A stretch of DNA of 64,000 bases from a virus (IMGVR_UViG_3300020047_008132:4325-68324); one strand, 5' to 3'. Positions 2,739-47,322 are shown, numbered from the stretch's first letter. Made by a program: numbers and translations. The notes: generated by a model not told the origin, from the sequence alone.

Positions 2739-2879
2739 ATTCAATTTAAACGGATATTATGGCTTATATATACTTATTATAAGCAATGCAAGCCGCCAAT
2801 TAAAAAAGCTGCCATAACCCCACCTCCTCCGCTACACGTGCCCACGCTCACGCTTTTTTGCCCACGCAGCAAGCACTGC

Positions 2880-3722
2880 TTATAACACCAAGTTTGTGCC
2901 ATTTGTAAAAAATTGTTTTATATTTTGCTTCATTTTTAAAACTTTAAAGAAAAAACCCACCGCACTAGAGTAACTAAAAAAGTGTAGTCTGACTTATAAA
3001 GTCACGGTAGCGTTGCTCCTGCTTATCAAAATACTCTTTATCAATTTCAAAGGCGGTAAAGTCCATCTTGTATTTGTGTGCTGAAATACGGTTAGAGCCT
3101 GAGCCTAAATGCGTGTCAATTACTTTCATTCCTTCTTCGGCATAGTTTTTATATATCCAGTCATATAATGCAACCGGCTTTTGTGTAGGGTGTGTTTTCT
3201 TTTCTCCTTGTGGATTATTCAAATATCCAAACCCAATCCAGTCATAGGTGAATCTTCTCAAGATACAATTAAATGAAGTCCACGCAAGTTCACCGTCTGA
3301 AAAGTTTGTATTATTTGCATTCGTTATTTTTTTATCCCAAAAAATCCATCCCTTCTTAGGTGGCAGTAAGTCTGCAAAATAATTACCTCCCCATACAATT
3401 TGATTCTTTGAAACGCGTTGAAGTTCGGCAAAGTATTCATCACTTGGTCGTTCATTATCCCATCCTTTTTTATCATGGTGCTGTTTATTTGAAAAAGTGT
3501 TTGCCTTACCTCCTTTGCCTTTTACGGTGGTATTCCCATCAAAGTTGATTCCGTATGGCGGGTCAACGACAGCCAAGTCGAAATAATTATCAGGAAACTG
3601 TTTCATTCCTTCGACACAATCAGAATTAAATACAATAGAACCCACGCTTTTTTTCTTTAAAGTTTTAAAAATTCATAAGGTCAATTTTTTACAAACGGAC
3701 ACAAACTCTTGCAGCGTTAGCT
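2880..3722 (+). repeat. attC-like site with a gene inside its loop
   Basis: R'' TTATAAC 2880-2886, R' GTTAGCT 3716-3722; arms ~2890-2955 and ~3648-3708 are inverted repeats (AGTTTGTG-CCATTTGTAAAAAATTG; TTTTTAAAACTTTAAAGAAAAAA). Confidence 0.75.
2974..3645 (-). CDS. DNA N4-cytosine/N6-adenine methyltransferase (beta class)
   Basis: DPPY motif, HPTQKP, then DTHLGSGS SAM-binding motif; GTG start. Confidence 0.9.
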   Translation of the reverse strand: MGSIVFNSDCVEGMKQFPDNYFDLAVVDPPYGINFDGNTTVKGKGGKANTFSNKQHHDKKGWDNERPSDEYFAELQRVSKNQIVWGGNYFADLLPPKKGWIFWDKKITNANNTNFSDGELAWTSFNCILRRFTYDWIGFGYLNNPQGEKKTHPTQKPVALYDWIYKNYAEEGMKVIDTHLGSGSNRISAHKYKMDFTAFEIDKEYFDKQEQRYRDFISQTTLF

Positions 3723-4058
3723 GCCATTTGCGGACGACAAAACATATCTCGGCATTGGTTCGCCTTGATGCTGTTCGATACCTTTAAACACCAGCGTTTT
3801 GTTTTCAATAAGCGGACGTATTACTTCGTGCCGTACAAGGCAATCAGCATACATAAACATTCCACGTTCAGGCAAAAACCAAACGCTGTGAAACATCCCC
3901 TGCGGTTTGTAAAATTCATCTTCTAACGATAGTTCGTGTTCAATCGCTTCAATTATTTTACGTTGGCTTAAATCAATTGAATAATCAAATTTTTCTCCAC
4001 CTACGCCTGACGACCTATGTAGGCCATCATTAAATCCGTTTAATAAATTCTTTTCCAT
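3717..4058 (-). CDS. Hypothetical cassette protein
   Basis: ORF fills the cassette; stop TAA lies in the complement of the GTTAG core site. Confidence 0.6.
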   Translation of the reverse strand: MEKNLLNGFNDGLHRSSGVGGEKFDYSIDLSQRKIIEAIEHELSLEDEFYKPQGMFHSVWFLPERGMFMYADCLVRHEVIRPLIENKTLVFKGIEQHQGEPMPRYVLSSANGS

Positions 4059-4121
4059 TTTGTCAAGTTATATGTTTACTTTTTAATCATTTTGTCAAGT
4101 TATAGGCTGACTAAAAACGGC

Positions 4122-4252
4122 AGCTAACAATATATTGGCAAAAGGCGGGCTGACGGTAATTAGAATGAGCATTTGCACTTTTGGCAACATTCCTACATAA
4201 CTCATCAGTAGTGCTATATTTCCCGCCCTTCGCCAATATTTTGCCGTTAGCG
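4122..4252 (+). repeat. attC-like site
   Basis: AGCTAAC...GTTAGCG; stem ATATTGGCAAAAGGCGGG / CCCGCCCTTCGCCAATAT. Confidence 0.85.
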
Positions 4253-4274
4253 GTAATTGCACCCCACCGCACGG

Positions 4275-4667
4275 TTAGAGTTCTTTATGAATTTGTAAAT
4301 AGTCCTCCAATTCGGTTAATGTATTTGCAGGTATATTAAAACCATCACTTTGCAAGTCGGGATTTTCTACCTTCATATTATCAAACATCCATCTCATAGT
4401 TTCTTGGGCGTTTTTTAATAAATTGAATTGCTTTGAAATATCCCTTTCATTTTGGTTTTTAAAAAATGCGTATTCTAAACAAGTTCTTGAGCAATAGTGG
4501 TGCATCCCATTACTTTCAATAATATGGCTATCTGTGCTATCATTTTTTATTTTGCCATTAATTATAATCCACCTAAATGGATGCTCTTTAATATCATTAA
4601 CCTCATAGGTATTTTCGCATTTTTTACCATCTTCAAAACGGTGTCCATCACATTTGTATATTAACAT
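4275..4667 (-). CDS. Hypothetical cassette protein with Cys/His (possible Zn) motifs
   Basis: YKCDG..KCE and HYCSRTC. Confidence 0.55.
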   Translation of the reverse strand: MLIYKCDGHRFEDGKKCENTYEVNDIKEHPFRWIIINGKIKNDSTDSHIIESNGMHHYCSRTCLEYAFFKNQNERDISKQFNLLKNAQETMRWMFDNMKVENPDLQSDGFNIPANTLTELEDYLQIHKEL

Positions 4668-4715
4668 ATTATTTTAGTTTTAAATTGTTTCTAATTCATT
4701 CGCTGTGCAACTAAC

Positions 4716-4772
4716 CGCTAACAGCGTATAAAAGCCATTGAAAAAACGGCTCTTATACGCAAAACGTTATGC
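4716..4772 (+). repeat. Short attC-like site (57 bp)
   Basis: CGCTAAC A GCGTATAAAAGCCA-loop-CGGCTCTTATACGC AAAAC GTTATGC. Confidence 0.85.
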
Positions 4773-5048
4773 GAAACCGCCAACATTCGTATAAGAAAAA
4801 AGCGTTTGTTGATATTCTGCAGAAAGATTTTTTACTTTCTCTAATTCATTCGGCATATTTTTATACAAGCCTTTTTGTCTATTTTGTTCACATTGAAATA
4901 AATATCTCTGAATGCTCCAAAGTTTTAAAAAATCTTTCTTTGGAATATCCCAATTTCTTAAATTGTAAAATCCTTGCAAAGGTTGGTATTCGCATAACAC
5001 AGGTTTTGCAATACCGTGCTTGAATGTTTCAGTTGGACTATTTTTCAT
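4767..5048 (-). CDS. Hypothetical cassette protein starting inside the attC loop
   Basis: ATG at 5048 within attC 4992-5123; stop overlaps GTTAT core at 4766. Confidence 0.55.
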   Translation of the reverse strand: MKNSPTETFKHGIAKPVLCEYQPLQGFYNLRNWDIPKKDFLKLWSIQRYLFQCEQNRQKGLYKNMPNELEKVKNLSAEYQQTLFSYTNVGGFA

Positions 5049-5123
5049 TTTAATAAAGTTTTTTGTTAGTATTTAGTTTCGTTGTCTTTAGGCACGGCAT
5101 CGCAAAGCCTTTTAACGTTATGT
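4992..5123 (+). repeat. attC-like site
   Basis: GCATAAC...GTTATGT; stem GGTTTTGCAATACCGTGC / GCACGGCATCGCAAAGCC. Confidence 0.85.
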
Positions 5124-5170
5124 GCAATTTTCTTTTTCATTTTTTTTCCCACCGCACAATGATTAAATGA

Positions 5171-5995
5171 TTAATCGAAGTTGCATATAGCACAATTTTG
5201 TTTTTCAAAGTTCACTTCCCAATCTTCACGACCAAATGATAAATAAGTTTTAATAAAATCTTCTTCATCTCTGCCCCAGTGCTTTTTTAGTCTGTTGCTT
5301 AAATCAACTGCCCTTTGCCAATATTCAGGGTAATGTATTCGCACCAATTCAAAATCCGACTTCTGCATATTTTTGCATGGTAAGCAGTTGTTATGGGTAA
5401 ATACTCTTTTCCCTGCTTCGTTTCTGATGTCGTAAATTTTCGGATACCAACCTATTTTTTCTTTCACAATTCCAAAACACCATTCATTGTCTTTATCTAT
5501 AATTGGAAATGCTTTGTAATAAATCATGTTTGGTGCATTGACAAACATTCGCTTTTCCCTTCGCCTTTCGTTTCTCACATAGCCCACCAAATCAATTTCA
5601 ATTCGTTTTTCTGCCATGTAATTTACAATCGGAATTACTTTTAATTCCTTTGTGCAAATTGGAATAGCTGCCGGGTGTGGTATCATTTTCATTTTCTCAA
5701 AATGAGCAATGATGCTATTCCAAGTTTCTTTGTAGAAAACGGTTTTGAAATTTTTCTTTGCAAACTCAACCCCTGCCAAAACAAAATCTCTTGTGTCTGG
5801 GCTATGTTCTTCAAAGTGTGCATAGAATAAATGCAACTCCAAAGGCTTTTTTTCTTCTGCTATTTCAGCCAACCAACACAGCACAGCCATTGAGTTTATG
5901 CCACCTGATAAACCAATCATAATTTTCTTATCTGAGAAATCACCTTTCTCAATCATAAGTGCTGCTGTATCTCTTTCAAATAATTCTATCTGCAT
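5171..5995 (-). CDS. PAPS reductase-like (PP-loop) protein
   Basis: IGLSGGINS PP-loop, PICTKELK, GYVRNERRR, C-terminal NCLPC; ATG at 5995 preferred. Confidence 0.75.
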   Translation of the reverse strand: MQIELFERDTAALMIEKGDFSDKKIMIGLSGGINSMAVLCWLAEIAEEKKPLELHLFYAHFEEHSPDTRDFVLAGVEFAKKNFKTVFYKETWNSIIAHFEKMKMIPHPAAIPICTKELKVIPIVNYMAEKRIEIDLVGYVRNERRREKRMFVNAPNMIYYKAFPIIDKDNEWCFGIVKEKIGWYPKIYDIRNEAGKRVFTHNNCLPCKNMQKSDFELVRIHYPEYWQRAVDLSNRLKKHWGRDEEDFIKTYLSFGREDWEVNFEKQNCAICNFD

Positions 5996-6054
5996 ACTTT
6001 TAATGATTAAATTGATTAATTGCCCACGCACAAAAAATGAAAAAGAAAACAGAC

Positions 6055-6186
6055 ACATAACAGCACCTAACCAAAATTGGCGGCTTAGCGGTAAATTGAA
6101 CTGTATTGCTTCGTATCATCATTTGTGCTTGTTTGAAAATTTGTACTTCGTAATCGCCAACTTCGGTTAGCCGCAAAACGTTAATC
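6055..6186 (+). repeat. attC-like site, right end of array 1
   Basis: ACATAAC...GTTAATC; stem CTAACCAAAATTGGCG / CGCCAACTTCGGTTAG. Confidence 0.85.
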
Positions 6187-6646
6187 AAAACCTAATCCAT
6201 GCACCAATACTTGGCGCAAAAGTGAAATGGTTACTCATTGTAAGTTCATACCTGATCGCGATATCCCTGTTTACTTCCTGAATGATACTGCCCCCGAATG
6301 TCATGCCATGACCAACGCGGTCAGATTCATCCGTCGGCATTGAGGTAAGACTGTATCCAATGATTAACCTTGCGGTGATGTCTTTGTCAAGTTCAAAGCT
6401 GTAACCGGTGCGAACCTGGAGCACCTTAGGAGCCGATACTTCCGGCGAAAGCGTGATGATCTGATTGTATTCGAGGAAAGATGGTCCAATGTTCCTGCCA
6501 GCCGTTAAGTTGGCGGAAAGGTATGATGAACTTCCTGGGACGTAGCCCAACGCAAGCGAGGCGTAGCCGTTGTGTTTGTTTATTTGGGCAAAGGAGGCCA
6601 TGGAAAAGATGATCAGCAGTAGGGTGATGATGGTTATGGTTTTCAT
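6185..6646 (-). CDS. Secreted/outer-membrane beta-barrel-like protein
   Basis: Sec signal ending SFA-Q, amphipathic beta pattern, C-terminal aromatic WIRF. Confidence 0.55.
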   Translation of the reverse strand: MKTITIITLLLIIFSMASFAQINKHNGYASLALGYVPGSSSYLSANLTAGRNIGPSFLEYNQIITLSPEVSAPKVLQVRTGYSFELDKDITARLIIGYSLTSMPTDESDRVGHGMTFGGSIIQEVNRDIAIRYELTMSNHFTFAPSIGAWIRF

Positions 6647-6651
6647 TGCGT

Positions 6652-6813
6652 TTAGTTTTTAATGTGAAATTTTGAAAGGATTGATATGACTAATTTTTTG
6701 ATCTGATCAATCTTTGAAACCGGGACACGAAAGGAAATCGTTTTTGTTGGCTCGTTGTACTTGGCTTTCCGGCCTGATGATGCTTGTTTTCCGCCGCGTG
6801 ATTGTTTTTTCAT
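6652..6813 (-). CDS. Small ribbon-helix-helix DNA-binding protein (53 aa, not in track)
   Basis: Manual translation MKKQSRGGKQASSGRKAKYNEPTKTISFRVPVSKIDQIKKLV. Confidence 0.6.
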   Translation of the reverse strand: MKKQSRGGKQASSGRKAKYNEPTKTISFRVPVSKIDQIKKLVISILSKFHIKN

Positions 6814-6989
6814 TATCTTGCTGCGCTTTTTAATGCGTGTTTATGTTCTTTGACATATTCAATCTTTTTAGCATCAGGATATTTTTCTTTCAGCCATTTT
6901 TTTGCTTCGGTAATTCCAAAGGAAAGTTCTGATTTTATTTCGTGATAACTTACCCTACCTGAAAAGGTTAGTTTAAATTTCCGTTTCAT
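6813..6989 (-). CDS. Small hypothetical protein (58 aa, not in track)
   Basis: Manual translation MKRKFKLTFSGRVSYHEIK...; overlapping stop/start with neighbours. Confidence 0.5.
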   Translation of the reverse strand: MKRKFKLTFSGRVSYHEIKSELSFGITEAKKWLKEKYPDAKKIEYVKEHKHALKSAAR

Positions 6990-7339
6990 TGTATGCCGAA
7001 CGGTTTTAAAATGTCCTGAAAAATTGGGTTGAGACTTGACGGTATGTTTTTGCTTTTCAGGTAGTCCTCAAAGGCTTCGTATCTATATTCTGCGTGGTCG
7101 CCAACGATTACGTATTCTTCCCTTGCTGCATCAAACGCTTTTCTTTCTTCCTGTGTCTCAAGATTCATTTCCACTATTTCTGATAGTGTGAAATCTGAAA
7201 TTATTTGCCCGTCCTTTGCTTCATCATCTTTTACTATGCAGCTTACTCTTGTTCCTCTGATTTCGTGAACTTCCAACCATTGACCGTTAAGGTTTTTGTA
7301 GTTGCTTTTGGTTTGAATTTTTGCTTTCATGTTTTGCAT
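6986..7339 (-). CDS. Hypothetical protein
   Basis: ORF in coupled operon. Confidence 0.55.
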   Translation of the reverse strand: MQNMKAKIQTKSNYKNLNGQWLEVHEIRGTRVSCIVKDDEAKDGQIISDFTLSEIVEMNLETQEERKAFDAAREEYVIVGDHAEYRYEAFEDYLKSKNIPSSLNPIFQDILKPFGIQ

Positions 7340-7442
7340 TTTGATTGGTTAAATTATACAACAAAGATGCTACTATAAAACGTATAATCCTGATATTTCA
7401 CCAATTATTTTTATACAATAATTTCAGGATTCTTACTAATCG

Positions 7443-8339
7443 CTATAACGCCGTCCTTAATCCAATAGGAACAACAACATCAGGAACCGGGCGCACCAAA
7501 TGCCCGCATTGATACCCACCGGCATATACCGGGAAGTTGTACTGATCCGTTCCGGCAATAAGCCCATACGGCAGTCCTGTCTTATCATATACGGCAATCT
7601 CTTTTCCGTCAATATCCCCTTTCAAAACAGTTGTAAACTCTGACCGATGTATATACCGCTTCTTGACCATGTGAACACAGAACTCCCGCGAGGTCTTAAT
7701 AAGCGATCCTGAGTATTCAAACCAATTCCAGCCCAGGTCATCAGATACAATTTGCCCATACTGCCGGTTGTACTGATTGATTGAATCGGTTACAATCTGC
7801 TTACTATACTTCAACAGCTTGCCATCCCCTGCATCTGTATTCGTGATAAACTCCCGCATCTGACCTACAAACTTCGTAATGGTCCCGCCGCCGGTTATAT
7901 TCTGCCTGAGTATATCCTGTATTGGCTTTATCACGTTTTCTGTAATACCGCTTTCTGTCAGAGACTCTAATGCTGAATCAATAGACTGTAATTTTATCTC
8001 CTCATAAACTTTTCCGGCTGAAAATTCTGCTTGTAATGAATTAAAATACTTGTTTTGAAGTGCCGAAACGTTGTCGAACTGTTTAATGTACTTTGATACA
8101 TTTTTCAGGTATTCTTTGGAAAGTATGATCTTTCGAAGCTGTGTCTTAATCTTCCCAATGGTGCGGATATTGGCAATGTTATTCTTTATCCGGCCATTGC
8201 TTACCTCGAGGTCTTTTATCAGACCAACCACCTCGGCAAATATCTTATCCTGAATCCCAGGGACGGCTTTAATAAAGTCGTTTACCGAGGATTCGAGTAC
8301 ATAAGTTAGCGCATTTACTATTTTGTCGGTTTCGGTCAT
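7443..8339 (-). CDS. Phage minor head protein (SPP1 gp7/Mu F-like)
   Basis: Directly after portal; SREFC and C-terminal GGYQCGH motif. Confidence 0.75.
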   Translation of the reverse strand: MTETDKIVNALTYVLESSVNDFIKAVPGIQDKIFAEVVGLIKDLEVSNGRIKNNIANIRTIGKIKTQLRKIILSKEYLKNVSKYIKQFDNVSALQNKYFNSLQAEFSAGKVYEEIKLQSIDSALESLTESGITENVIKPIQDILRQNITGGGTITKFVGQMREFITNTDAGDGKLLKYSKQIVTDSINQYNRQYGQIVSDDLGWNWFEYSGSLIKTSREFCVHMVKKRYIHRSEFTTVLKGDIDGKEIAVYDKTGLPYGLIAGTDQYNFPVYAGGYQCGHLVRPVPDVVVPIGLRTAL

Positions 8340-10081
8340 GCAACATCATTCATTACTTCTTGCTTCTCTGAATTAGCCTTAATGATCGCATCAGCATAGC
8401 CGGCAATAGTCTTAGCCTTTTCTTCGTACGACTTAGCCGCAAATTCAGCATCTGCATTCATGGCCATCTTCACAAATGATGCAATGTTGCAGGAAATAAT
8501 GTAATCCTTTTCAGTAATTCCGCCGTTTTGCAGTTGTAACACCTTATCATCCTCAGCAACACCGGCCAATGGATTGAGGATGTAGATATTTACCATGAAA
8601 TCCTTTGTCTTATCATCAGCGTTGAACTTGGCATTTGCGTAGTCAATTTCCAAGGCCGATACGATAGATGGATTCACCTTTGCATTTTTGGCTGAAGTCA
8701 ATTCCTGCAAAATGTAGTTAGATGAAATCAGGTCGAACTTTTGTGGAACCGGTATCTTTGGCAACTGCTTTTCTCGCTTATCTTTATCAACATTCGCGTA
8801 GCGGTAGTCATTGATCATCTTGTAAACACGATCAATCACCCTTACAATATCCTCTGCAATAGTGGCTACAAAGGTATTGAGTGAATCACGGTCCACCTCC
8901 TTCGACACGCCGGATTCAGAAAGCGGCACGTCGGCCAGAAATTCCATGTTGATCGCCGCCAGTCCATCAAAGATATGCGCCTTCACCCTCTTATCCTGAA
9001 TCTCCACGATCTTCGTGTCCTTCGTGACATATCCCACAAATGGGTTAGGCAGTGCCTGCTCTGTGGCTGAATTAGGCCTTAGTGAGATATGCTCGTAAGG
9101 ATTGAATGGTATATATCCGGTTCCCTTGCACGTTTCGCATTGAGATGAAATTATTTGTCCCTCTTTGCCTTTGGTAGTTACCGTTCCGGTTGAATGGCAC
9201 TTCTTACAGTCCTGGTTAGTATATGACCACATCAGCGAGTGAATATGCTGAACAACCTCTGCTTGTAAGTCTGAATATTCCCTTACCGCTTCATCCCATG
9301 AAGGAATACAATTTATAATCCTGGATTCAAAGATGAAATGCCTTTCGTACACTTTAAAGAATTGCGCCCCTATCATAAAGGCCGGAAGATACCCAAGCCC
9401 ATGCTCAAAAGGCTCGCCTGCCATCATTGCGCCTTTTTCATCAATCTGCTCATACCGTGTTATGGACTGCGCCGTAACTGCATAAAGGATAAGTCCATCC
9501 TTCACCTGTCCGCCCTTTGTTTTATAGGTGGAAGTGTTTTGTGAACGCAACACAGCATATTCGCCAGGCATGAAATCCCAAACCTGATCAGAATTGAAAA
9601 CGAAAGGATATGGTTTGTAATAGTCGGCCTCCTCAACAGTCTGCTCCAATGGCATAACTAATATGACGCTGTTCGGATCAACCACGTAGTTTTTTAAAAG
9701 GACATTAAACGCCCAATTTGTAACGCTATTGAAATCCAGCGGGAAGTTCTTTTCGCAATAATCATTAAGCCTTTCACCTTCACGCCCGGAGGTAAGACTT
9801 TTTTCATCATACTTCACATACCACCCTTCAGCCTTGCGTATCTTGCCAAGTTCGGTCAGCACCTTTCCAAATGCGCCTTTCGTCTTTGACTTATAAATAG
9901 CCTCTCTGTATTTCTTGATGGTGTCTGATTCACCGGGCCTGCGTTCCCCAATCAGTGTTTTTGGAAACTCTCCGTCAGAATGAATTTTAATTTCAGCAGC
10001 CATTTTACAAGTTAAAGGGTAGGCCGGATGCCTGTATGGTGATTTGCCTATGTACTTTTCAATCTTAATTTCTTCCATCAT
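8336..10081 (-). CDS. Portal protein with inserted CxxC zinc finger
   Basis: 581 aa, precedes minor head gene; CKKCHSTG..CETCKGTG insert. Confidence 0.65.
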   Translation of the reverse strand: MMEEIKIEKYIGKSPYRHPAYPLTCKMAAEIKIHSDGEFPKTLIGERRPGESDTIKKYREAIYKSKTKGAFGKVLTELGKIRKAEGWYVKYDEKSLTSGREGERLNDYCEKNFPLDFNSVTNWAFNVLLKNYVVDPNSVILVMPLEQTVEEADYYKPYPFVFNSDQVWDFMPGEYAVLRSQNTSTYKTKGGQVKDGLILYAVTAQSITRYEQIDEKGAMMAGEPFEHGLGYLPAFMIGAQFFKVYERHFIFESRIINCIPSWDEAVREYSDLQAEVVQHIHSLMWSYTNQDCKKCHSTGTVTTKGKEGQIISSQCETCKGTGYIPFNPYEHISLRPNSATEQALPNPFVGYVTKDTKIVEIQDKRVKAHIFDGLAAINMEFLADVPLSESGVSKEVDRDSLNTFVATIAEDIVRVIDRVYKMINDYRYANVDKDKREKQLPKIPVPQKFDLISSNYILQELTSAKNAKVNPSIVSALEIDYANAKFNADDKTKDFMVNIYILNPLAGVAEDDKVLQLQNGGITEKDYIISCNIASFVKMAMNADAEFAAKSYEEKAKTIAGYADAIIKANSEKQEVMNDVA

Positions 10082-10944
10082 TATATTTTTTGCCGTTCGG
10101 GTAAGTATTTAATTTTGTCACGCAGTTCAAACGGATGCAAAAGCCCCATTTGCTTAAATACCGATTTTACCCGGTTGTTATAAAACGTCCGCATCCGTGC
10201 CGTAGCAACCTTTCCTCCGGCTGAATACAGGTAGTAGTTATTCCAAATATCGCTGTCCTGGTAGCCATTGCGGGCATTCACATAGGCCCAGAAAGACGGA
10301 CGCCACATATCTTTATGTGGGTAGTTGTCCTGTAATATTGAAGCAACAGAAAAAGCAAACTCATCAGGCATTGAGCCGGCAAACTCACGCGGCGCGATAA
10401 GCGGAGCGTCCCATGTATCCTTTACCAATTCAAAGTAATTGTGGTTTTTATCTGTCTTTTTAAACCATATCACCTCTGTTGAAAGTGAATAGTACCTGCC
10501 TGCCGTAAGCTGATAAGCCTCTTTCAAATCCGATGGCTCCACCCAATACATTGAATTACGCTCGTTCATTCCTGGCAGTTTCTTCCCTGTTGCCATATCA
10601 GCAAAGCCATGGTTGGCAATAGTGAAGTCAACTTGCGACAATTCAGCAAACAATTCAGACGGCTTATTCTTCAGCCAAATAGTATCAGCGTCAATAAATA
10701 ACGTGTCATCAAATGGCGTAAGATCGTAAAGCCTTGTTTTTAGTCGCAAGGCGTGTTCCTGGCCTTCATAGCGTATCATTTCAACTCCATCGAACAAAGT
10801 ATTGCCTTCAAGCGATTTGAGTGCCACAGCGTCATAAATGAGCGCAATAGGCACGTTTTCCGTCGCCTTAATACTTGCGATCAGGTTATAAGCCATCCTG
10901 CCGTAGTACTGATTGCCTGTTGCTATGATTAAAATACCGGTCAT
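10081..10944 (-). CDS. GT-A fold glycosyltransferase
   Basis: LKTRLYDLTPFDDTLFIDAD (DxD) motif. Confidence 0.7.
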   Translation of the reverse strand: MTGILIIATGNQYYGRMAYNLIASIKATENVPIALIYDAVALKSLEGNTLFDGVEMIRYEGQEHALRLKTRLYDLTPFDDTLFIDADTIWLKNKPSELFAELSQVDFTIANHGFADMATGKKLPGMNERNSMYWVEPSDLKEAYQLTAGRYYSLSTEVIWFKKTDKNHNYFELVKDTWDAPLIAPREFAGSMPDEFAFSVASILQDNYPHKDMWRPSFWAYVNARNGYQDSDIWNNYYLYSAGGKVATARMRTFYNNRVKSVFKQMGLLHPFELRDKIKYLPERQKI

Positions 10945-12077
10945 GTGGCAGCGCAGTTTGAATTAACCTGATAGTATGGGTAAGGCTTCACTTTAAATGT
11001 CCCCATGCCGATATCGGTAGTGAATCCCTCAACCTCCGCCCATTCAATCTCATACTGCCCTTCACTGACATAGCTTGTAAACCGGCTTTCGCCTGATCGC
11101 TTCATCCCGAAGTCGTCATGCTTCATGGCAATAGCAAGCCTGAAGTGGAAAGATTCTCCGCCCCAGTCTGTCTTCCCCTGGAATAGTTTTTCAAAAGTTG
11201 CCTGTAATGTTTTATATGTGCCGTCTGAAAACCGGAACACATTTTCATTTACCACCGGCTGCGGCTTTTCGATCAGGATAGGCAGCCGGACGATATTGTA
11301 AAATTCGTCGTTTGTTTCGTAGTCGAAATCAAAAGCATTTTCAGAGTTTCGGTACTTAATCACAGTCGTATAGCAATCGCTTGCCTGGTACTTAAGGCAG
11401 TTTGAACAGGCGATCAAGTCATCTTCATTTGAAGTGATATCGGCCGTGAACACCTCCGCCCCAACTGTTACATTGCCATACACCGGGCCTGATGAATGAA
11501 TGGTGATAATGCTTATTCCGTAAGGGATAGTTATTTGCAGTTGCACGTTATCCCCTGTTAAATCCTCTATTGCATTTGCAATATCTTGGGCGTCGGAAAT
11601 ATCATAAACACCAGATACCGGGCTTCCTCCAATCACTACCGATATTGTTATGTCAGTTCCGGTTATGCCGGTGAAGTCCTGATAAGCGTAACTGTCGCCG
11701 CTTACCCTTACGATGCCTAAGTAAAAACACTGTCCTTCCTCAAGTATTTCCGCAAAGTTGAAATCCTCATTTATTGTTATCAACCCATAGGCCAAATCCT
11801 CTGCGCTTAAATGAGACCATAGCACGGTCGCAAATACGTCGGTAGTGGAATAGTAGCCTGTTGGCATTTCGATAATGTCGGCAATGTCGCATTCTGAAAA
11901 TAGCTTTATGACGTATTCATTCTGCCCTGGCGCGGATTCAACCTCATTTGCAATAAGCTGAAAGGAGATGTCCTCACTCCTTACCACAGGTAGGCAGGCG
12001 TTGACTTGCAACACACAATCATCCTCCTCGGCAATGCCGGAGAATTGGATAAAGCTATTTTCAGGCGCGTATATCAT
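10941..12077 (-). CDS. Putative tail/structural protein
   Basis: Acidic, beta-rich, within the tail block. Confidence 0.45.
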   Translation of the reverse strand: MIYAPENSFIQFSGIAEEDDCVLQVNACLPVVRSEDISFQLIANEVESAPGQNEYVIKLFSECDIADIIEMPTGYYSTTDVFATVLWSHLSAEDLAYGLITINEDFNFAEILEEGQCFYLGIVRVSGDSYAYQDFTGITGTDITISVVIGGSPVSGVYDISDAQDIANAIEDLTGDNVQLQITIPYGISIITIHSSGPVYGNVTVGAEVFTADITSNEDDLIACSNCLKYQASDCYTTVIKYRNSENAFDFDYETNDEFYNIVRLPILIEKPQPVVNENVFRFSDGTYKTLQATFEKLFQGKTDWGGESFHFRLAIAMKHDDFGMKRSGESRFTSYVSEGQYEIEWAEVEGFTTDIGMGTFKVKPYPYYQVNSNCAAT

Positions 12078-39639: not shown

Positions 39640-39707
39640 AATGATGGGTAAAAATAGTTGTTAAACAAATTGTTTGCTATCTAAATAGATTTTATATTTG
39701 TGGTAAA

Positions 39708-39935: not shown

Positions 39936-40123
39936 TCCAACCCGCCAAAGATTGCCGCCGTCCAGGAATGAAGCTGTGGCCTAAATATGTCCCTGCCGAC
40001 GTTCGGAAAATTGTGATAAGGAAGCAAGCGAAAATGATGGATGAGGCAAGTGGTGTTCGCAGTCAGGAAGCGGCTATTTATGCGATTATCAGGGAATGGG
40101 ATGAAATGAAAAATAAAGTTTAA
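39932..40123 (+). CDS. Small RHH-like regulator
   Basis: KYVPADVRKIVIRKQ..SQEAAIYAIIREW. Confidence 0.45.
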   Translation: MIQPAKDCRRPGMKLWPKYVPADVRKIVIRKQAKMMDEASGVRSQEAAIYAIIREWDEMKNKV

Positions 40124-43077
40124 AGATGCAACCTATACTTTTTAGTAAAAAGAAAGTCAATGTTTGCAAAGTTCTTTTCATCAGGCCGTCTAACGTATAG
40201 ATGTATCTCCCTTGCGGCCAATGGTAATATCTCAATGATGTAATTGATTGCCGTTGAAACTGTGTGAATCGTATTAGCCCGTTCAATAACCTTTGACCAG
40301 TCCAGCAAAGTAAAGCCTGCGACCTCTTTCATAAATACTTTTCGGTCACCACCGGATAAATGAACATTGACTTTGCCGGTACTATTGCTTCGAAAGGTTG
40401 AATTGATCAGATTGTATTTTTCACCGTCCTTTAATCCCAAGACATTATAATACAATTCATCCTCCTTTGCCGTGTCGCGCACCCATGAGCATCCGCGCCA
40501 GCCCTGCCAGTCCTTGCCAAAGTACAGATATTTTGATTTCATGCAGTCAGTAAATGGCAGTTTCAAAATACCATCAGCGAAACGAAGCGGGATAACGGTC
40601 GCGCCGTTTAAGTCATATTCATCCTTTCTTTCGTAGTCAATGGTAAGTATTGACTTATCAATGAATGTTATTTCCGGGAAGTGTTTTCCAATGGCTGCAT
40701 ATTGAGGGACCACCGGCACGATTATCTTATGTCCCTGGGAAATGAATTGTCGTAGTAAAGCAATGATAAACAAATGATCCCCCAACCCAAACGGCTGATT
40801 GATGATTAATACCTCTTGACGTTTTTTGTCTTGACTATTTTTGTCAATAGTTGTAACTTCAACAGGCTTAACAACTTTAGAAACTGTCTGTTTATCCAAC
40901 ATCGTTACCGGCTTCTTTTCCGTCCCATTCAAACAGGTGAACCCATGAAACCCAAACTCATTAGTATAGTATTTCTTTTCCTGGCGTCCATGCCCTTCGA
41001 TACTGAATTTCCGTGCGGCCTCCTCTGAAGCATACCTGATGCCATACTTACGTTCAAGATAACGCCTGTAAGTCCTGCAAATATGGTGATCCTCAGGATG
41101 GGTAAGCCTTATCTGTGGATCCGTCGCTACAATCTCCATTAGTCGCTTTGAACGCAAAGAAAACCCGCCGTTACCGACGTTCATGCCGTCCCTATGCCAC
41201 CATGTCGCGCCAATGTAGTCGAATTGCAAAAATGCGCTATCCCATGCCGCCGGGTTCTTTACATATCCGTCCGACTGGACGATAAGGACAAATTCTGTGT
41301 CAATGTATTTGTATAGCTCCTTTACAATGAAATGGGAATAATCTTCAATTTTATCAAGCGGAGCAATTGGGACACGAAAAACACTCCAGGCATCGCCTAA
41401 TGTTTCTGTGGATGCCGACGTAATGAATTTATGCGCTCCAAACTTTATGCGCATTGTACATTCATTCATTGCGATAACTCCATCTTTAATCTTATCACAG
41501 TTGACCGTCACGAGCGTAACGTTTGGCAGGTGTAGTCTTTTGTCTTCCGGCTCAATAGGTTCGCCTAATGGCTTAATTTCGACCAAATCGGCGAAATTGG
41601 AATTTTCATCTTCAAATTCGTCAAAAATTGTCCCGCTTTGTGCTAATGTATGGGCTTTCAGCAAAAAAGCGTGATCATGCGCCGTGTGCATAGCGGCAAT
41701 AAATTCATCTTTTGAATACGACCGCCCATTCATTCCAATGAAATTATAAATCGGAAATAATGTGTCCGCAATCATCTTTGTATTTTCCTCTAAATCAGGG
41801 AACCAACCTGGATGAAATGCTATGTAAATATTTGGCTTATGCTTCTCCAAATAATCTGACATCTGTGGAAGCAGCAACACCTCCCCGGCCTCAATATCAA
41901 TTTTTATCAGGCACACTTCGCCAATGTCAATATTGTTTTCAGCGATAAAGGATTCAAGTGTCAGCGACTTTACTTTTTCTATTGCAGCATACTTATTAAA
42001 TCTTACAACCATGCTGCTTTCAGAATCCCCAAACTCTCCCTTTGCATTGAGATCAATTTCGCCGTTCACATTCCCAATAGCCAATTTGTGAACTGAAATA
42101 TCAGCCCTATTGATTTTTACATTTTCATCCAATATTTTATGGATTCCTTTATCCGGCTCCGCCGCGTAACACTTTGCTCCAAGTTTTGAAGCGTATAAAG
42201 AAACCGCCCCATTCCATGCCCCGATATCAATAAATACTTTGCCAGGAACAATCTCTTTGTCGAATACATCAAATGTTTCTGGCTCCCATTCATTGCGTGA
42301 TACACGGCCCCACCATTCGAAGTGATTTTTATCTGAGTAATATATTTTCTTACCCCTTACGAAAACATGATCAGCTTCATCCATTACAAAATCATCTGCA
42401 ACGTCCATCGGCTCGTTTCCTGCGCTATGTCCCATACTTGAATTTATACCAATGTGTTGAACAACTGACGGGACGGTGCAAACCGCCCCTCCTGAATTCT
42501 TGCAAGCCTCCGCGTCCCAATTTACGAGTCGTTTCATTCCTTTTTCTAAGGCTGGCAAAATCCATTTTTGGTATTGGTCCCGGTCAAAGCACATATTTAT
42601 TCCGCCAACTGATGACTTGATATTATACCCTTCACCAGCTTCGATTATAGGGTGTCTTTCGGTCCCGTTTGCGTTTTTTGTAAGGCAGTTGAAGCCGGTA
42701 ACTATCTTGTCGGGGAACTTTTCCTTTAGGGATATGATCTTTTCGATGAAATCTGGACGGACGATTGCGTCACTGTCGAGATTCATTACGATGTCGCAGA
42801 CTGGATTATCACCCCTGATTAATGAGGGGTAAAACAAATGTTCAATTCCTTTGTCAAGACAAACACAAACCCCGCTATTCCTATCCCTTGTTATGATTGT
42901 AGCATTCAATAATACTGAAGCGTGATTTAAAATATTCACAGTTTCTTTATCAGTGCTTTTGTCATCAACAAAAACAATTTCCGTCCCTTCAGGAATCCGC
43001 GCCGCCTTCAAACTGTCAAGGCATTGGCGCAAGTAGTCAGCGCGATTGTAACATGGTATTACGATTCCTAATTTCAT
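40120..43077 (-). CDS. Multidomain GT2 - FkbM methyltransferase - DUF5672-like - GT-B-like protein
   Basis: IVIPCYNR..LDSD; DIGAWNG..KIDIEAGE; FDYIGATW..VGNGGFSLRS; QPFGLGD..STAINY. Confidence 0.8.
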   Translation of the reverse strand: MKLGIVIPCYNRADYLRQCLDSLKAARIPEGTEIVFVDDKSTDKETVNILNHASVLLNATIITRDRNSGVCVCLDKGIEHLFYPSLIRGDNPVCDIVMNLDSDAIVRPDFIEKIISLKEKFPDKIVTGFNCLTKNANGTERHPIIEAGEGYNIKSSVGGINMCFDRDQYQKWILPALEKGMKRLVNWDAEACKNSGGAVCTVPSVVQHIGINSSMGHSAGNEPMDVADDFVMDEADHVFVRGKKIYYSDKNHFEWWGRVSRNEWEPETFDVFDKEIVPGKVFIDIGAWNGAVSLYASKLGAKCYAAEPDKGIHKILDENVKINRADISVHKLAIGNVNGEIDLNAKGEFGDSESSMVVRFNKYAAIEKVKSLTLESFIAENNIDIGEVCLIKIDIEAGEVLLLPQMSDYLEKHKPNIYIAFHPGWFPDLEENTKMIADTLFPIYNFIGMNGRSYSKDEFIAAMHTAHDHAFLLKAHTLAQSGTIFDEFEDENSNFADLVEIKPLGEPIEPEDKRLHLPNVTLVTVNCDKIKDGVIAMNECTMRIKFGAHKFITSASTETLGDAWSVFRVPIAPLDKIEDYSHFIVKELYKYIDTEFVLIVQSDGYVKNPAAWDSAFLQFDYIGATWWHRDGMNVGNGGFSLRSKRLMEIVATDPQIRLTHPEDHHICRTYRRYLERKYGIRYASEEAARKFSIEGHGRQEKKYYTNEFGFHGFTCLNGTEKKPVTMLDKQTVSKVVKPVEVTTIDKNSQDKKRQEVLIINQPFGLGDHLFIIALLRQFISQGHKIIVPVVPQYAAIGKHFPEITFIDKSILTIDYERKDEYDLNGATVIPLRFADGILKLPFTDCMKSKYLYFGKDWQGWRGCSWVRDTAKEDELYYNVLGLKDGEKYNLINSTFRSNSTGKVNVHLSGGDRKVFMKEVAGFTLLDWSKVIERANTIHTVSTAINYIIEILPLAAREIHLYVRRPDEKNFANIDFLFTKKYRLHL

Positions 43078-43322
43078 ACAAATGGATTTTCTGTATAAAG
43101 CGAAACGGGGGGCATTCCATTTCCTGCAACCTGTAAATATACTACTCCGGTTTTTGCAATCTCTTCTAAGTCTTCTTTATTAAAAGCCCATTTAGTAATA
43201 ACAACCGGAATTCCTTCGTGGTCTTGCCCCTTAAATGCGCTTACTGACATACATTGCTCATCAGTCATTCCTTCCGGCTTGTTGAATGTAATGTTTGCTT
43301 CTTTAAATTCTATTGGTAGCAT
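43074..43322 (-). CDS. Hypothetical phage protein
   Basis: MLPIEFKEAN..PEGMTDEQC family. Confidence 0.6.
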   Translation of the reverse strand: MLPIEFKEANITFNKPEGMTDEQCMSVSAFKGQDHEGIPVVITKWAFNKEDLEEIAKTGVVYLQVAGNGMPPVSLYTENPFV

Positions 43323-43332
43323 GATTGATATT

Positions 43333-44097: not shown

Positions 44098-44477
44098 AGA
44101 ATTTCAATTTTAAATGGTGAAGTGCCTAATATCTCCATGACCAGGTCATAAGCATCCCTGCTTTGCAGTATCGTGTCACGGTCTCGCTGAAGCCCTACCA
44201 ATATGCAGCCGTGAGTATCTTTTGCAGTGTTCCCTGCGTGAATGCGCACCCCTTCAAACCCTGGCACATTGAGCAACAGCGGCATCATTCGTTTAAACCG
44301 ATTTGAGACGTTCACAATGCCGTTATATGTTCCTTTGGGGATGGCAGTTGCGCCAAATACCTTTACAGGCCGCTCCACGTCCTCAAGCGTGTAGCACACA
44401 AATTCGCCGTTGACAAACATTTCCCCGGCTGTACTTTGATCAGTTGACTTTTCGCGGATTACTGTTATTTCTATCAT
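44094..44477 (-). CDS. DUF5675-like putative endolysin
   Basis: YTLED..TAIPKGTY..GVRIHAGN..GCILVG. Confidence 0.75.
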   Translation of the reverse strand: MIEITVIREKSTDQSTAGEMFVNGEFVCYTLEDVERPVKVFGATAIPKGTYNGIVNVSNRFKRMMPLLLNVPGFEGVRIHAGNTAKDTHGCILVGLQRDRDTILQSRDAYDLVMEILGTSPFKIEIL

Positions 44478-44917
44478 GGCAGTTTGTTTTTAAACGGATT
44501 CAATTTACTTGCTAACCAAAAAAGCAACAGCCCAAAGCATAACAAGGCAAATAAAAGCAGTGTAAAGTCAAGTAGCGTCTTGCCCAAACTTTTACGTTCC
44601 TTAATAACCGGATTAACTGTATTAGTCTGCACCATCACCTCTTTGATAATCGTGTCCGTAGCACATTCACCAAACACATGAATTGTATCATTGTACCTTA
44701 CAACCTTAACATGGAGCCGCTCCTTATCCATATAGAACGTATCTATTGACTTGGAAAAGATAAACGTGCTGTCAGCCCTTACGGCCTCAATGATCGTAGT
44801 GTCTGATTTGTAGATGGTATCAATACCAACAAGTTCGGGATTCTTTTTGACCAACCGCCCAAGCCGTTGGGCCGGACTGCATGATTGAAGCAGAAGTAAA
44901 ACGATGATTATTCTCAT
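44474..44917 (-). CDS. Lipoprotein with C-terminal TM (u-spanin-like)
   Basis: LLQSC lipobox, beta-rich middle, C-terminal TM; beside lysin. Confidence 0.6.
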   Translation of the reverse strand: MRIIIVLLLLQSCSPAQRLGRLVKKNPELVGIDTIYKSDTTIIEAVRADSTFIFSKSIDTFYMDKERLHVKVVRYNDTIHVFGECATDTIIKEVMVQTNTVNPVIKERKSLGKTLLDFTLLLFALLCFGLLLFWLASKLNPFKNKLP

Positions 44918-45423
44918 ATTTTTTCAGCAAAAGCGGTGAATGAATTGTAAGCGTCCAATTCGCTTACAAAAATGTTTTTATATTTTCCGGATGCGACAAA
45001 ATAGTCCTTTATCATATCCGGTACAAAAGCGTTTATGTGTTTCCGGTTTGAATAAGGACGCCAATAAAGCTGATTCCAATGCGGGAGGTAAAGAAACATT
45101 ACCCCGCCTGACCGTAAGCAATCCGTCCAGTGGTTAAGGTGCGCAACCCAATCATTGAGATGCTCAAGACAATGCGAACTGAATATCCCATCGGCATAAT
45201 TTAAAGGAAGATTCATTGCATCCCGCAAATCTTCATCCTTACAATTTTTATCAATTCCAATTGCCCCTGGAAATTTCCACTCCTCGCGACCATATCCAAT
45301 GTCGAATATTATACCTTCTTTCAGAACTTCTTTTGCAAATGGAAGGGCAAATCTGGCAGCGTTGCCATCGGCCTGGAATGCCGGATAATTCACGCCTCTA
45401 AAGGTTACTGTTTCTATTGGCAT
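44914..45423 (-). CDS. Class I SAM-dependent methyltransferase
   Basis: FDIGYG, FSSHCLEHL, LRSGGVM. Confidence 0.8.
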   Translation of the reverse strand: MPIETVTFRGVNYPAFQADGNAARFALPFAKEVLKEGIIFDIGYGREEWKFPGAIGIDKNCKDEDLRDAMNLPLNYADGIFSSHCLEHLNDWVAHLNHWTDCLRSGGVMFLYLPHWNQLYWRPYSNRKHINAFVPDMIKDYFVASGKYKNIFVSELDAYNSFTAFAEKI

Positions 45424-45427
45424 TTGA

Positions 45428-45435
45428 CAAAAATA
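45428..45435 (-). promoter_or_regulatory. Bacteroidota -7 promoter element
   Basis: TATTTTTG immediately upstream of the late block. Confidence 0.5.
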
Positions 45436-45453
45436 ACTATTTTTAGTATATTC

Positions 45454-45714
45454 TTATTTCGCTTTGTAGGCAATGTGTCCTTTTAAAAAGGTGTTAATCT
45501 CAACAGTCCCGCCGATCGCTTCGACAATCAATATCAGCGTCTTTACAGTACAATTTCTACCAGCCTCAATGTCAACAATGGTCGCCTGGCGTACTCCGGT
45601 TTTTTCGCAAAGTTCCTTTTGAGTAAGTCCTGACGCCTTACGAAGCGTTTTGATAGCCTCGGCAATTTTCAATCTTGACTTCTTTGGATTTGCTGTATTC
45701 TTATTCTTATTCAT
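45454..45714 (-). CDS. XRE-family HTH regulator
   Basis: LRKASGLTQKELCEKTGVRQATIVDIEAG. Confidence 0.85.
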   Translation of the reverse strand: MNKNKNTANPKKSRLKIAEAIKTLRKASGLTQKELCEKTGVRQATIVDIEAGRNCTVKTLILIVEAIGGTVEINTFLKGHIAYKAK

Positions 45715-45892
45715 TAATTATGGTTATTAGTTCTTTGATCTTGTTGCGCGAAACAAACTTTCTGTCAAGATACCATCCAAGTGTTCCGTTCTTTATTACT
45801 CTTTTCACAGGCTGAAGCCCCTTTTTGAAGACATCCATTCCCTGTAATGTGTATTTTTCATGTCCCCTAATTTGATATTGTTTTTCAGGCAT
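45707..45892 (-). CDS. Hypothetical protein
   Basis: ORF. Confidence 0.5.
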   Translation of the reverse strand: MPEKQYQIRGHEKYTLQGMDVFKKGLQPVKRVIKNGTLGWYLDRKFVSRNKIKELITIINE

Positions 45893-45922
45893 TTGTGATT
45901 TTTTTATTCGTCAAGCCTGGTG

Positions 45923-46450
45923 TTAGTGGCAATAGTTAAGAAACTCCGTCTTACCATTGTAACCTTTCGACATTTGGAGAATACAGGTTTGCACCCTTGC
46001 TCCGTTAAATATGCTTCTTGGTAAGTGAGTAATGCTTACCAATCCAAACTCAATGATATCACTCGTTCTTTTTTGCCCGTTTATCACAGTCAACCAAGGC
46101 ATTAAAGCAATAATGTTATCGCTCATTTCCATACACTCATACAAAATTTTATATCCTTTTGCCATTGGCGTAAATGGTGGGTTCATTACCACCCAATCAA
46201 ATCTCTGTTTTTCCATAGCAAAAAAATCTTGTGGCTCAATTACAGTTCCTTTATGCTTTAATGCCTTTACCAAGTTTCCTAATCCGCTTGTAGGTTCTAA
46301 AATTGTTCCTGCGTTATCAGGCAAAAAAGAACTCATATAGTTGCAAACCTTTTCTGGTGTTTGAAATCCTGCAATACTACTGCCACTAACATCCGCTATA
46401 AGTAATGGCGGGTTCTGTGGTAAATCAATGTTTTTGCTTTCTATTATCAT
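45923..46450 (-). CDS. Small N6-adenine DNA methyltransferase-like protein
   Basis: FQTP, ILEPTSGLG, VMNPPF; start inside attC loop, stop in core site. Confidence 0.8.
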   Translation of the reverse strand: MIIESKNIDLPQNPPLLIADVSGSSIAGFQTPEKVCNYMSSFLPDNAGTILEPTSGLGNLVKALKHKGTVIEPQDFFAMEKQRFDWVVMNPPFTPMAKGYKILYECMEMSDNIIALMPWLTVINGQKRTSDIIEFGLVSITHLPRSIFNGARVQTCILQMSKGYNGKTEFLNYCH

Positions 46451-46512
46451 TTGTGTATAATTCAAAGTGAGTAGTCCTAAATCCGCCACTACTCATAGCG
46501 GAAACGTTATAA
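46384..46512 (+). repeat. attC-like site
   Basis: CACTAAC...GTTATAA; stem CCGCTATAAGTAATGGCGG / CCGCCACTACTCATAGCGG. Confidence 0.85.
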
Positions 46513-47154
46513 GCAAGCTGCTACATTCCTGCTGCGAATGAAAGTTCCCCATTGTTCAGCCATAGCTTTTGCCACCCCTGTGAAAGTTTTTGAGCTTTCC
46601 TTTGCGTTTTTTGCAATCCCCATGTTATAACTTTGTCCACGTTTCTTTCCTCCAGTATTACTCGGCAAATACGGCTTATAGTTGCTCTTAATGTCTGTCG
46701 GCTTTAATAGTGGCAAATTTTTCAACCACAATAAAGTTCGTTTACTGTATTCGTGTCCATACTCGTAGGGCTGTATCGCTTGGCTATGTTTTGGTAATTC
46801 AACTACTTTTAATGGTGTTGGGTTTTCAACTGCAATATATTCAATAGGCGCGTTAAGCAGTTCCAAAAACATAGCTTTCGCTTCCATTGCTTTTTCGTAC
46901 CTATCTTGGCACAAATTACCTGCTGTTGGGTACATCCATCTTGCTCCAGCCCTACTCATATAAGTGCAAGGCGGGTGTGCTATCATCACATCATATTTGC
47001 CACTATAAGCCTCTTTAACTGCATCGCCTACAATATGCCATTCGGGTCTACCTCCACTACATTCTTGTAGGTCGCAACTATAAGCCTCAAATCCTAATTC
47101 TCGGAAAGCTCTGCAAACTTCTTGGCTCTCCTCACAAGCTATTAATATTTTCAT
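46507..47154 (-). CDS. C5-cytosine DNA methyltransferase-like protein
   Basis: ILIACEES, HPPCTY, IAVENP, RSKT-like SKTF; stop in core site. Confidence 0.8.
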   Translation of the reverse strand: MKILIACEESQEVCRAFRELGFEAYSCDLQECSGGRPEWHIVGDAVKEAYSGKYDVMIAHPPCTYMSRAGARWMYPTAGNLCQDRYEKAMEAKAMFLELLNAPIEYIAVENPTPLKVVELPKHSQAIQPYEYGHEYSKRTLLWLKNLPLLKPTDIKSNYKPYLPSNTGGKKRGQSYNMGIAKNAKESSKTFTGVAKAMAEQWGTFIRSRNVAACL

Positions 47155-47191
47155 TTCAATTTAAGTTTCTTTTTAATTAACCGCAGCCAGC

Positions 47192-47322
47192 TTATAACAC
47201 GTGTTTTGTGCAATAGGGGCTGTGGTGGTTTATTCAAGTTTCTGCTTCTAATCAAGGTCTGTGGTAGGTTGAAGGTTTCGTTTCCAAAATCCCCTACTGC
47301 ACAAAGCACCTTAACGTTACCT
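47192..47322 (+). repeat. attC-like site, right end of array 2
   Basis: TTATAAC...GTTACCT; stem GTGTTTTGTGCAATAGGGG / CCCCTACTGCACAAAGCAC. Confidence 0.85.

Follow-up and report, generated by a model that had tools for sequence, protein, structure and literature searches.

The DNA analysed here is a stretch of 64,000 nucleotides (nt), referred to below as the window, from a virus (IMGVR_UViG_3300020047_008132:4325-68324). It represents bases 4325-68324 of a 68,324-bp virus genome rated complete by CheckV, which corresponds to a Flavobacterium-type phage of 68 kb. According to the open reading frame (ORF) calls on the 64-kb window, the - strand holds nearly every gene from 2974 onwards. This work concerns two arrays of gene cassettes found in the window, one of five and one of two cassettes, whose units are joined by hairpins similar to the attC sites of integrons, and in particular the strand on which the cassette genes lie with respect to these sites.

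Cassettes and hairpin sites in the two arrays

Read on the + strand, each cassette begins with the TT of a G/TTA core (the slash marks the unit boundary throughout), continues with an ORF on the - strand and an inverse core (..TAAC), and finishes with an imperfect hairpin of 50-125 nt and the G of the next core. The parts of both arrays are the following:

2777-3716 (+): cassette 1, made up of the unit 2777-2882 plus a giant site
2777-2886 (+): gene-less unit at the hairpin-less start of array 1; starts with TTATAAGC, ends with the inverse core GCTTATAAC, with a 20-nt inverted repeat (2777-2796 and 2866-2885)
2883-3719 (-): giant attC-like site around a methyltransferase gene, with TAAC and GTTA cores (2883-2886, 3716-3719), arms of ~70 nt and inverted repeats at 2899-2915/3682-3698 and 2932-2955/3649-3672; missed by the covariance model because of its length
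2974-3645 (-): N6/N4 DNA methyltransferase gene in the loop of the giant site (PF01555, E = 4e-11; phrog_23224, E = 1.9e-40)
3717-4246 (+): cassette 2, with ORF 3717-4058 (-, 113 aa) and hairpin 4122-4252 (74.2 bits with the model, on -); 14-nt repeat 3716-3729/4115-4128
4247-4766 (+): cassette 3, with ORF 4275-4667 (-, 130 aa) and the short hairpin 4716-4772 (40.5 bits)
4767-5117 (+): cassette 4, with ORF 4767-5048 (-, 93 aa), which starts in the loop of hairpin 4992-5123 and runs through its arm and core (..PVLCE..)
5118-6180 (+): cassette 5, with a PAPS-reductase-like gene 5171-6058 (-; phrog_424, E = 5e-14) and hairpin 6055-6186 (106 bits); terminal inverted repeat of ~30 nt, including 5128-5145/6032-6049
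45923-46506 (+): cassette 6, with an N6 DNA methyltransferase gene 45923-46489 (-; ATG at 46450), which starts in the loop of hairpin 46384-46512 (94.9 bits)
46507-47316 (+): cassette 7, with a DNA methyltransferase gene 46507-47154 (-; own start; phrog_757, E = 7.6e-52) and hairpin 47192-47322 (101.8 bits)

A preliminary description of this DNA, made from the sequence, had reported arrays with a bare TT start on the left and a complete site on the right, seven ORFs all on the - strand, and stop codons overlapping the core. These features were all recovered. On the + strand, the left ends carry no hairpin (A/TTATAAGC at 2777, G/TTAGTGGC at 45923) and both right ends are complete hairpins, closing with the G at 6180 and 47316. 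The seven ORFs are all on - (7/7), and the TAA of the ..TAA/C core is the stop codon of four of them (3717-4058, 4767-5048, 45923-46489 and 46507-47154); the stop of 4275-4667 lies within a GTTA too, and the final core of cassette 7 overlaps the stop of the backbone gene 47317-47508. Furthermore, the first 11-30 nt of each unit pair with the bases before its own ..TAAC box, well beyond the 7-bp core. Concerning the cargo, family support was obtained for four ORFs, three of them DNA methyltransferases and the fourth PAPS-reductase-like, and the three small cassette proteins gave no family match.

The hairpins were described with a covariance model built from an alignment of 19 of them, taken from the window and related viral contigs. 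In the 64-kb window this model finds the six hairpins listed above and no others, all on -, including the 57-nt site 4716-4772, which was absent from the training set. The 19 hairpins align to a single fold in which 16 of 23 pairs have compensatory changes; paired cells reach 90.1%, against 65.8% in shuffled alignments, and covariation scores 0.595, where shuffles give 0.163 (0/500 attain 0.595) and slid partners ~0.13. The unit ends also co-vary as inverted repeats, as TTATAAGC and GCTTATAA in one case and TTAGCCA and TGGCTAA in another. By this model the window contains at least two close attC-type sites with no IntI nearby, which is what defines a cluster of attC sites lacking integron-integrases (CALIN). 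Permissive Rfam scans of both arrays returned only chance hits and no attC family. A reversed-sequence control had been used for a crude hairpin finder, but it was inadequate because reversal preserves inverted repeats, and the covariance model was used instead. The crude finder, and not the model, also reported a weak hairpin-like stretch of tandem ACTTACAAA units at 48565-48687.

Some variation of these parts was seen in metagenomic contigs. Shorter versions of the hairpins 4122-4252 and 6055-6186 occur (window 4153-4227 and 6076-6161), one of them with 31 other letters replacing 84, so loop length varies in the population. A contig of run X10 skips 873 nt in window 5149-6023, between the direct repeats CCCACCGCAC and CCCACGCAC, with loss of the gene 5171-6058, and the 30-nt terminal inverted repeat is left as a bare hairpin; this agrees with a separate remark on those direct repeats by the author of the preliminary description. 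Contigs of two runs skip or replace ORF 4275-4667 (window 4274-4692) and keep the ends of cassette 3, the left joint being G/TTA. In addition, the methyltransferase of cassette 7 is mosaic in comparison with positions 2380-3036 of locus L001, with only 39% protein identity to lillamy gp007 and ~80% DNA identity over 110 nt at the start and 150 nt at the end of the cassette.

Boundaries, strand and polarity of the phage cassettes

Two related Flavobacterium phages, lillamy9-1 and lillamy9-3, give the clearest information about which hairpin moves with which gene. They are of equal length, with blocks 98.4-100% identical, and one 439-nt unit is relocated, being at 5637-6080 in lillamy9-1 and at 2037-2480 in lillamy9-3. 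The unit itself spans 5638-6076 in the first phage and has gone to the array start at 2037 in the second. On the + strand this unit reads G/TTATAACTC.., an ORF on -, ..GAGTTATAAC, the hairpin and ..CAAAGCG/. The donor site is closed as ..AACG/TTATGTAAAA, the target is a hairpin-less array start (..TTGTAG/TTATAAGC), and the joints present only 5-7 nt of identity, all inside the core. Phage snork6-2 is without the 439-nt unit and also without a 342-nt unit of the same build. As for the window, one contig of run X5 skips 4245-4764 (520 nt, 5 nt ambiguous), which is exactly cassette 4247-4766. When cassette 46507-47316 was compared across contexts, the end of homology was ..TAAC in as many as 10 comparisons at a locus, the whole downstream hairpin was never included, several pairs had the upstream hairpin in common and broke at its far core, and homology with relatives at cassette 7 stopped at G/TT 46506.

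Flanking repeats alone would fit a hairpin belonging to either the left or the right gene, and it is the natural variants that decide. The moved and missing units, together with the ends of homology, indicate that a gene and the hairpin located before it in gene sense form the mobile unit, with the crossover at G/TT on the antisense strand, that is, AA/C on the coding strand. The pairwise identity of the hairpins upstream and downstream of the methyltransferase cassette (0.53 vs 0.49) was also tried and did not separate the boundary models, which the breakpoint analysis did.

Metagenomes of wastewater, sludge, sediment and freshwater, belonging to at least nine studies, contain near-identical copies of window 3715-12000, and coverage by other metagenomes has its start at 3715, one base ahead of G/TT. 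In four metagenomes with an almost unchanged 3715-12000, positions 1-2800 are not covered at all and 2800-3700 hardly so; relatives have other DNA in place of the + strand gene block and cassette 1, and the break is the G/TT at 3716. Three of four runs show a summed contig depth over window 3601-4400, in cassette 2, that is 2-8 times the phage-backbone value, and in X5 the two are about the same, so this cassette probably sits in other genomes as well. Outside the arrays, contigs of three metagenomes skip 596 nt at 6813-7410, a stretch that takes in the small genes 6813-6989 and 6986-7339, with no hit of the hairpin model. A search for phage-backbone relatives with an empty insertion site, with 47508-47795 and 40123-43077 as queries, gave no match, nor did a pattern search using ORF 4767-5048, and no counterpart of the genes to the left of array 1 is present next to the lillamy array. 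On the other side of the window, 58 nt at 47154-47211 match 37 Flavobacterium phages at 93%, sited between a methyltransferase gene and a small ORF.

Regarding the strand, the assignment of the - (coding) strand to the integron bottom strand is supported by five criteria that agree: the boundaries, folding, G.T pairs, purine excess, and an attC-like spacer asymmetry with its signature. The preliminary description had stated that the - strand folds better and had proposed strand-specific folding energies as a check. With DNA parameters, - folds better in five of the six window hairpins, and the coding strand does so in 25 of the 36 distinct hairpins of the family, the mean difference being -1.54 kcal/mol (Wilcoxon p = 7e-5), which bears the statement out. 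The coding strand of these 36 hairpins is 53.6% purine. For comparison, attC bottom strands have been reported to be purine-rich and to fold 2.12 kcal/mol better (PMC5027507). It had also been stated that most stem mismatches are A:C on +. Inside the window stems this holds weakly (14 vs 11, a small excess of A:C on +), and it is at the core-adjacent pair and in the 19-site alignment that it stands: that pair is A.C on + in all seven window sites and G.T on the coding strand in 19/19 aligned sites, and across the alignment there are 58 G.T cells on - against 6 A.C cells.

The spacers lead to the same assignment. In attC sites next to IntI, where the top strand was set by the position of intI, the bottom strand reads AACG, a spacer of 5.65 nt, the stem, a spacer of 2.0 nt and TGTT (26 sites, 9 genomes). 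The coding strand of the phage sites likewise reads AACG...TGTT, with spacers of 5.47 and 1.67 nt (n = 36). A longer 5' spacer had been considered as a top-like mark of the coding strand, and this was dropped because the pattern belongs to the bottom strand of IntI-adjacent attC. Moreover, HattCI places the bottom strand of P12002L_attC1, a site from the Polaribacter phage P12002L, on the coding strand of the flanking methyltransferase genes. The forward primers of Qi et al. 2023 are bottom strands, as judged from their aadA7 control (PMC9892861). Since the supplement shows this, P12002L_attC2 was withdrawn as experimental support for the strand assignment; it is an oppositely oriented AT-rich hairpin that says nothing on the system.

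As the hairpin precedes the gene, the ATG and the first 15-30 codons can be located in the hairpin loop. The preliminary description had pointed to two ORFs starting in an attC loop, and both were confirmed: ORF 4767-5048 starts 71 nt into its hairpin and ORF 45923-46450 starts 58 nt in, and both read through the 3' arm and the core. Genes of this kind follow 10 of the 36 hairpins and amount to about 30% in relatives; the others start 16-80 nt past the core. Homology begins only at the core in both cases. The homologues of 45923-46489 and the phrog_799 profile match from residue 42 only, and there is no in-frame start between the core and the conserved TPEKV motif. For 4767-5048, conservation among 13 homologues starts at VLCEY, which is the core in codons, and extends to the C-terminus, and their leaders vary and have 15-25 residues. 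The reading frame through the core differs between cassettes, and therefore hairpin and gene must match. Similar loop leaders (MIIESKN.., MIVESTK.., MEKVSNK.., MNSTKVS..) were also seen on unrelated genes with different core frames (L012, L013, L018, L098, P0001-P0013 and window 46450).

The polarity of gene and site was then compared among phages, host chromosomes and IntI-bearing integrons with one rule for all sets, namely the strand of the longest ORF between neighbouring sites. In the window and ten viral loci the ORF is on the bottom-like strand, on which the model matches, in 37/38 intervals (7/7 in the window). In the chromosomal arrays of Flavobacteriaceae it is on the bottom-like strand in 3/46 intervals and on the opposite strand in 43/46 (phage vs chromosome, Fisher p = 4e-19), and in the IntI integrons of the phylum 18/19 intervals have it on the top strand and 1/19 on the bottom-like one. 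The sole IntI locus at class level (G284) has one cassette with no clear gene and gave no polarity. An example of the phage pattern is lillamy9-1, where 16 model hits between 2252 and 8959 are all on -, as are all depositor-annotated genes there except gp026 at 8837, and the arrangement recurs in many unrelated phage contigs. Inverting a whole array leaves its gene-to-site polarity unchanged; therefore, the comparison supports the view that the phage cassettes are a distinct class and not host arrays captured backwards. The phage-specific inverted class proposed in the preliminary description thus agrees with the boundaries, the site shape and the polarity.

Recombinase, host arrays and competing explanations

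No tyrosine recombinase, serine recombinase or Y1 transposase was found in the phage of the window, in lillamy9-1 or in P12002L. PF00589 has no match in the 68-kb record, lillamy9-1 or P12002L, and PF01797 (Y1 HUH transposase) has none in these three phages either; each unit has one hairpin only, unlike elements of the IS200/IS605 type. The comparison of the three proteomes gave no common candidate recombinase, only methyltransferases, tail proteins and, in two of them, an HNH/NinG-like nuclease. At its left edge (22-432) the window encodes an HNH endonuclease that matches NinG/Rap weakly, and NinG/Rap-type nucleases are also present in lillamy9-1 (gp047) and P12002L (gp51).

Concerning the hosts, IntI above the curated cut-off (TIGR02249) is found in 113/401 genomes of the phylum, in 1/401 of the class and in 0/401 Flavobacteriaceae genomes. 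Nevertheless, the phage-derived model (R1) matches 125 of 151 Flavobacteriaceae genomes, often with 20 or more hits and up to 22 or more, and therefore another recombinase must act. In six chromosomal loci the sites form arrays of 9-14 hits, each array on one strand, and the chromosomal example that was inspected has the gene and then the hairpin on the top-like strand. Long chromosomal arrays of canonical polarity were also observed in genomes G858, G881, G883, G772 and G781 (loci L227-L234), with an Xer-like recombinase a few kb from one end. On a contig with the same methyltransferase cassette, the array has an Xer-like recombinase gene at a distance of 1.6 kb, whose product reaches 177.6 bits with the IntI model (cut-off 265). 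In 3/3 genomes where both homologue and array could be placed, the best homologues of this recombinase are 2.6-8 kb outside the chromosomal arrays, past the 5' end of the top strand, and point in the same direction; a tblastn search with the Xer-like recombinase gave no match within the six chromosomal array loci. The host Xer-like enzyme is the best candidate recombinase.

In the mechanism proposed here, the coding (-) strand is the one selected to fold, and we infer a single-strand recombination: a tyrosine recombinase acting in trans would cut AA/C at the base of the folded hairpin, on its 5' side, a single strand would be exchanged, and replication would complete the event. The acting enzyme may be the Xer-like one encoded near the chromosomal arrays of the same hairpins in Flavobacteriaceae, rather than IntI. 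Cassettes could leave as circles and re-enter at another core, such as the hairpin-less end of the array (3' in gene sense). The cargo consists mainly of DNA-modification genes, which guard phage DNA from host restriction, and its expression, which the preliminary description placed on the phage - strand transcript, would presumably come by read-through from phage promoters; in the RNA runs screened, the share of sampled words was 0.12 or less.

The overall explanation, namely that the phage carries two arrays of mobile cassettes of the integron type whose cargo genes are on the attC-bottom-like strand, is given a probability of about 0.72, and several points weigh against it. Movement is seen most clearly in related Flavobacterium phages; for the phage of the window the evidence of recombination is indirect, and its joint comes from one contig with a shorter side of only 24 nt. 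Population breakpoints fall at both cores of a hairpin, where a strict one-core mechanism predicts otherwise, and therefore hairpin and gene also re-assort; this would fit a weak strand selectivity of sites without extrahelical bases. The longest ORF is a proxy for the gene, and the chromosomal sample consists of six loci in six genomes. The phage sites have 0.14 extrahelical bases per site, against 2.58 per IntI-adjacent attC, and IntI1 did not recombine P12002L_attC1, the sole tested site of this type (PMC9892861). Moreover, the Xer-like enzyme is a candidate by position only, and G.U-tolerant pairing on the transcribed strand is also expected of an RNA element.

This last point belongs to a different explanation, in which the hairpins are RNA elements of the phage transcript (processing sites, terminators or translation-start modules) and genes are exchanged by homologous recombination between them, as proposed for the promoter/stem-loop cassettes of T4-type phages. 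It would account for G.U being tolerated on the transcribed strand only, for loops that hold start codons and a recurrent leader, and for the lack of a recombinase in the phages. Nevertheless, the joints of the lillamy9-1/9-3 translocation have only a few nt of identity, confined to the core, the unit ends change together as inverted repeats, the core signature is the one seen in IntI-adjacent attC, and the same sites in host chromosomal arrays sit on the non-coding strand, where they cannot be 5' RNA leaders. As the whole explanation it is therefore considered unlikely, and an added RNA role of the hairpins in phages is possible.

Still less probable is that the arrays are dead fragments of host arrays taken up in reverse, with no phage-specific class. 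The hairpin family is indeed shared with Flavobacteriaceae chromosomes, and the phage has no recombinase, but inversion flips gene and hairpin together and the polarity differs (37/38 vs 3/46), the movement between near-identical sister phages is recent, and the arrangement is repeated in many unrelated phage contigs. The lowest credence goes to the canonical orientation, with the + strand recombined and each hairpin belonging to the gene upstream of it in gene sense, so that the gene would come first and its attC after it. In gene sense each ORF does end in ..TAAC followed by a hairpin, like a normal cassette, and the flanking inverted repeats fit this reading as well as the other. However, in the sister phages and the X5 contig it is the hairpin upstream of the gene that moved or went missing with it, the downstream hairpin is never co-inherited whole, genes starting in a loop would be split, and the coding strand is bottom-like in its folding energy, G.T pairs and spacer asymmetry.

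Starting from integron-type cassettes with the gene on the bottom-like strand, a wider proposal can be made, which is tentative and rather doubtful at present: Flavobacteriaceae and their phages could share an IntI-independent analogue of the integron with an Xer-like recombinase, in two mirror-image pools, gene and then site in the host, and site and then gene in the phage. If this were true, the flip would put a stably folding site, with a portable start codon and leader, 5' of each phage gene, and a cassette crossing between phage and host would land antisense to the resident transcription, which would be a barrier between the pools.

Relation to known systems

Integrons, both class 1 and chromosomal ones such as those of Vibrio cholerae and the IntI-bearing members of the phylum, share with the phage arrays the imperfect hairpin with AAC and GTT cores and a G/TT crossover, a unit start complementary to its own inverse core, single-gene arrays and insertion at the hairpin-less end, as well as the spacer asymmetry, the AACG...TGTT signature and one strand that is purine-rich and folds better. 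The differences are the gene on the bottom strand (top-strand genes 0/7 in the window and 1/38 in phages vs 18/19 in IntI integrons), sites without extrahelical bases, terminal repeats of 11-30 nt that exceed the 7-bp core, loops with start codons, and no IntI in the phages or in the 401 Flavobacteriaceae genomes. With neither extrahelical bases nor IntI, the arrays are best called integron-type rather than integrons in the strict sense. The chromosomal arrays of Flavobacteriaceae are also close, as one covariance model finds both and the hairpins of an array are all on one strand, but they are the mirror image of the phage arrays, with the gene on the top-like strand followed by the hairpin (43/46).

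CALINs in virulent phages were published in 2023, including that of P12002L with two methyltransferase cassettes (Qi et al. 2023, PMC9892861). That CALIN has in common with the present arrays the host family, the cargo and the hairpin type, with attC1 located between gp36 and gp35 and its predicted bottom strand being the coding one. Its 'divergent directions' were ascribed to mosaicism (PMC9892861), and the paper does not describe reversed polarity, movement between sister phages, loop starts or host chromosomal arrays. Our literature search found no paper on reversed polarity, loop starts or chromosomal arrays of this kind. In Flavobacterium phages, methyltransferase content has been linked to plating efficiency on a second host, with no mention of hairpins or cassettes (PMC7077304).

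Integron-type shuffling is usually seen as bacterial and IntI-dependent, with promoterless genes read from one end of the array. Here, the same kind of site moves genes in virulent phages, and the cargo is made up of anti-restriction DNA-modification genes. The phage cassettes follow the opposite strand rule to host cassettes on the same sites, for which a functional explanation is needed; since the gene is on the opposite strand to that of bacterial arrays, the folding site sits before the gene and sometimes supplies its start codon. It should also be noted that surveys that orient attC by gene direction, or genes by attC, will mis-annotate such arrays, and that gene callers will miss the N-terminal leaders encoded in loops.

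A system comparable in its mode is the CTX phage, whose folded single-stranded DNA is integrated at dif by XerCD. By analogy, the mode proposed here would have in common with it a housekeeping-type tyrosine recombinase, a folded single strand, the exchange of one strand and a junction resolved by replication; it differs in that the whole CTX genome integrates at dif, with no arrays and no cassettes.

Finally, chromosomal integrons also contain reverse-oriented cassettes, with the gene antisense to the attC top strand, such as toxin-antitoxin cassettes with their own promoters. In the phage hairpins, the Bacteroidota -7 motif TAnnTTTG, the one promoter type searched, was not enriched (6 in sense vs 3.2 +/- 1.7 expected, 5 in antisense). 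The reverse-oriented cassettes of integrons are scattered exceptions in canonical arrays, whereas every phage array examined here is wholly reversed.

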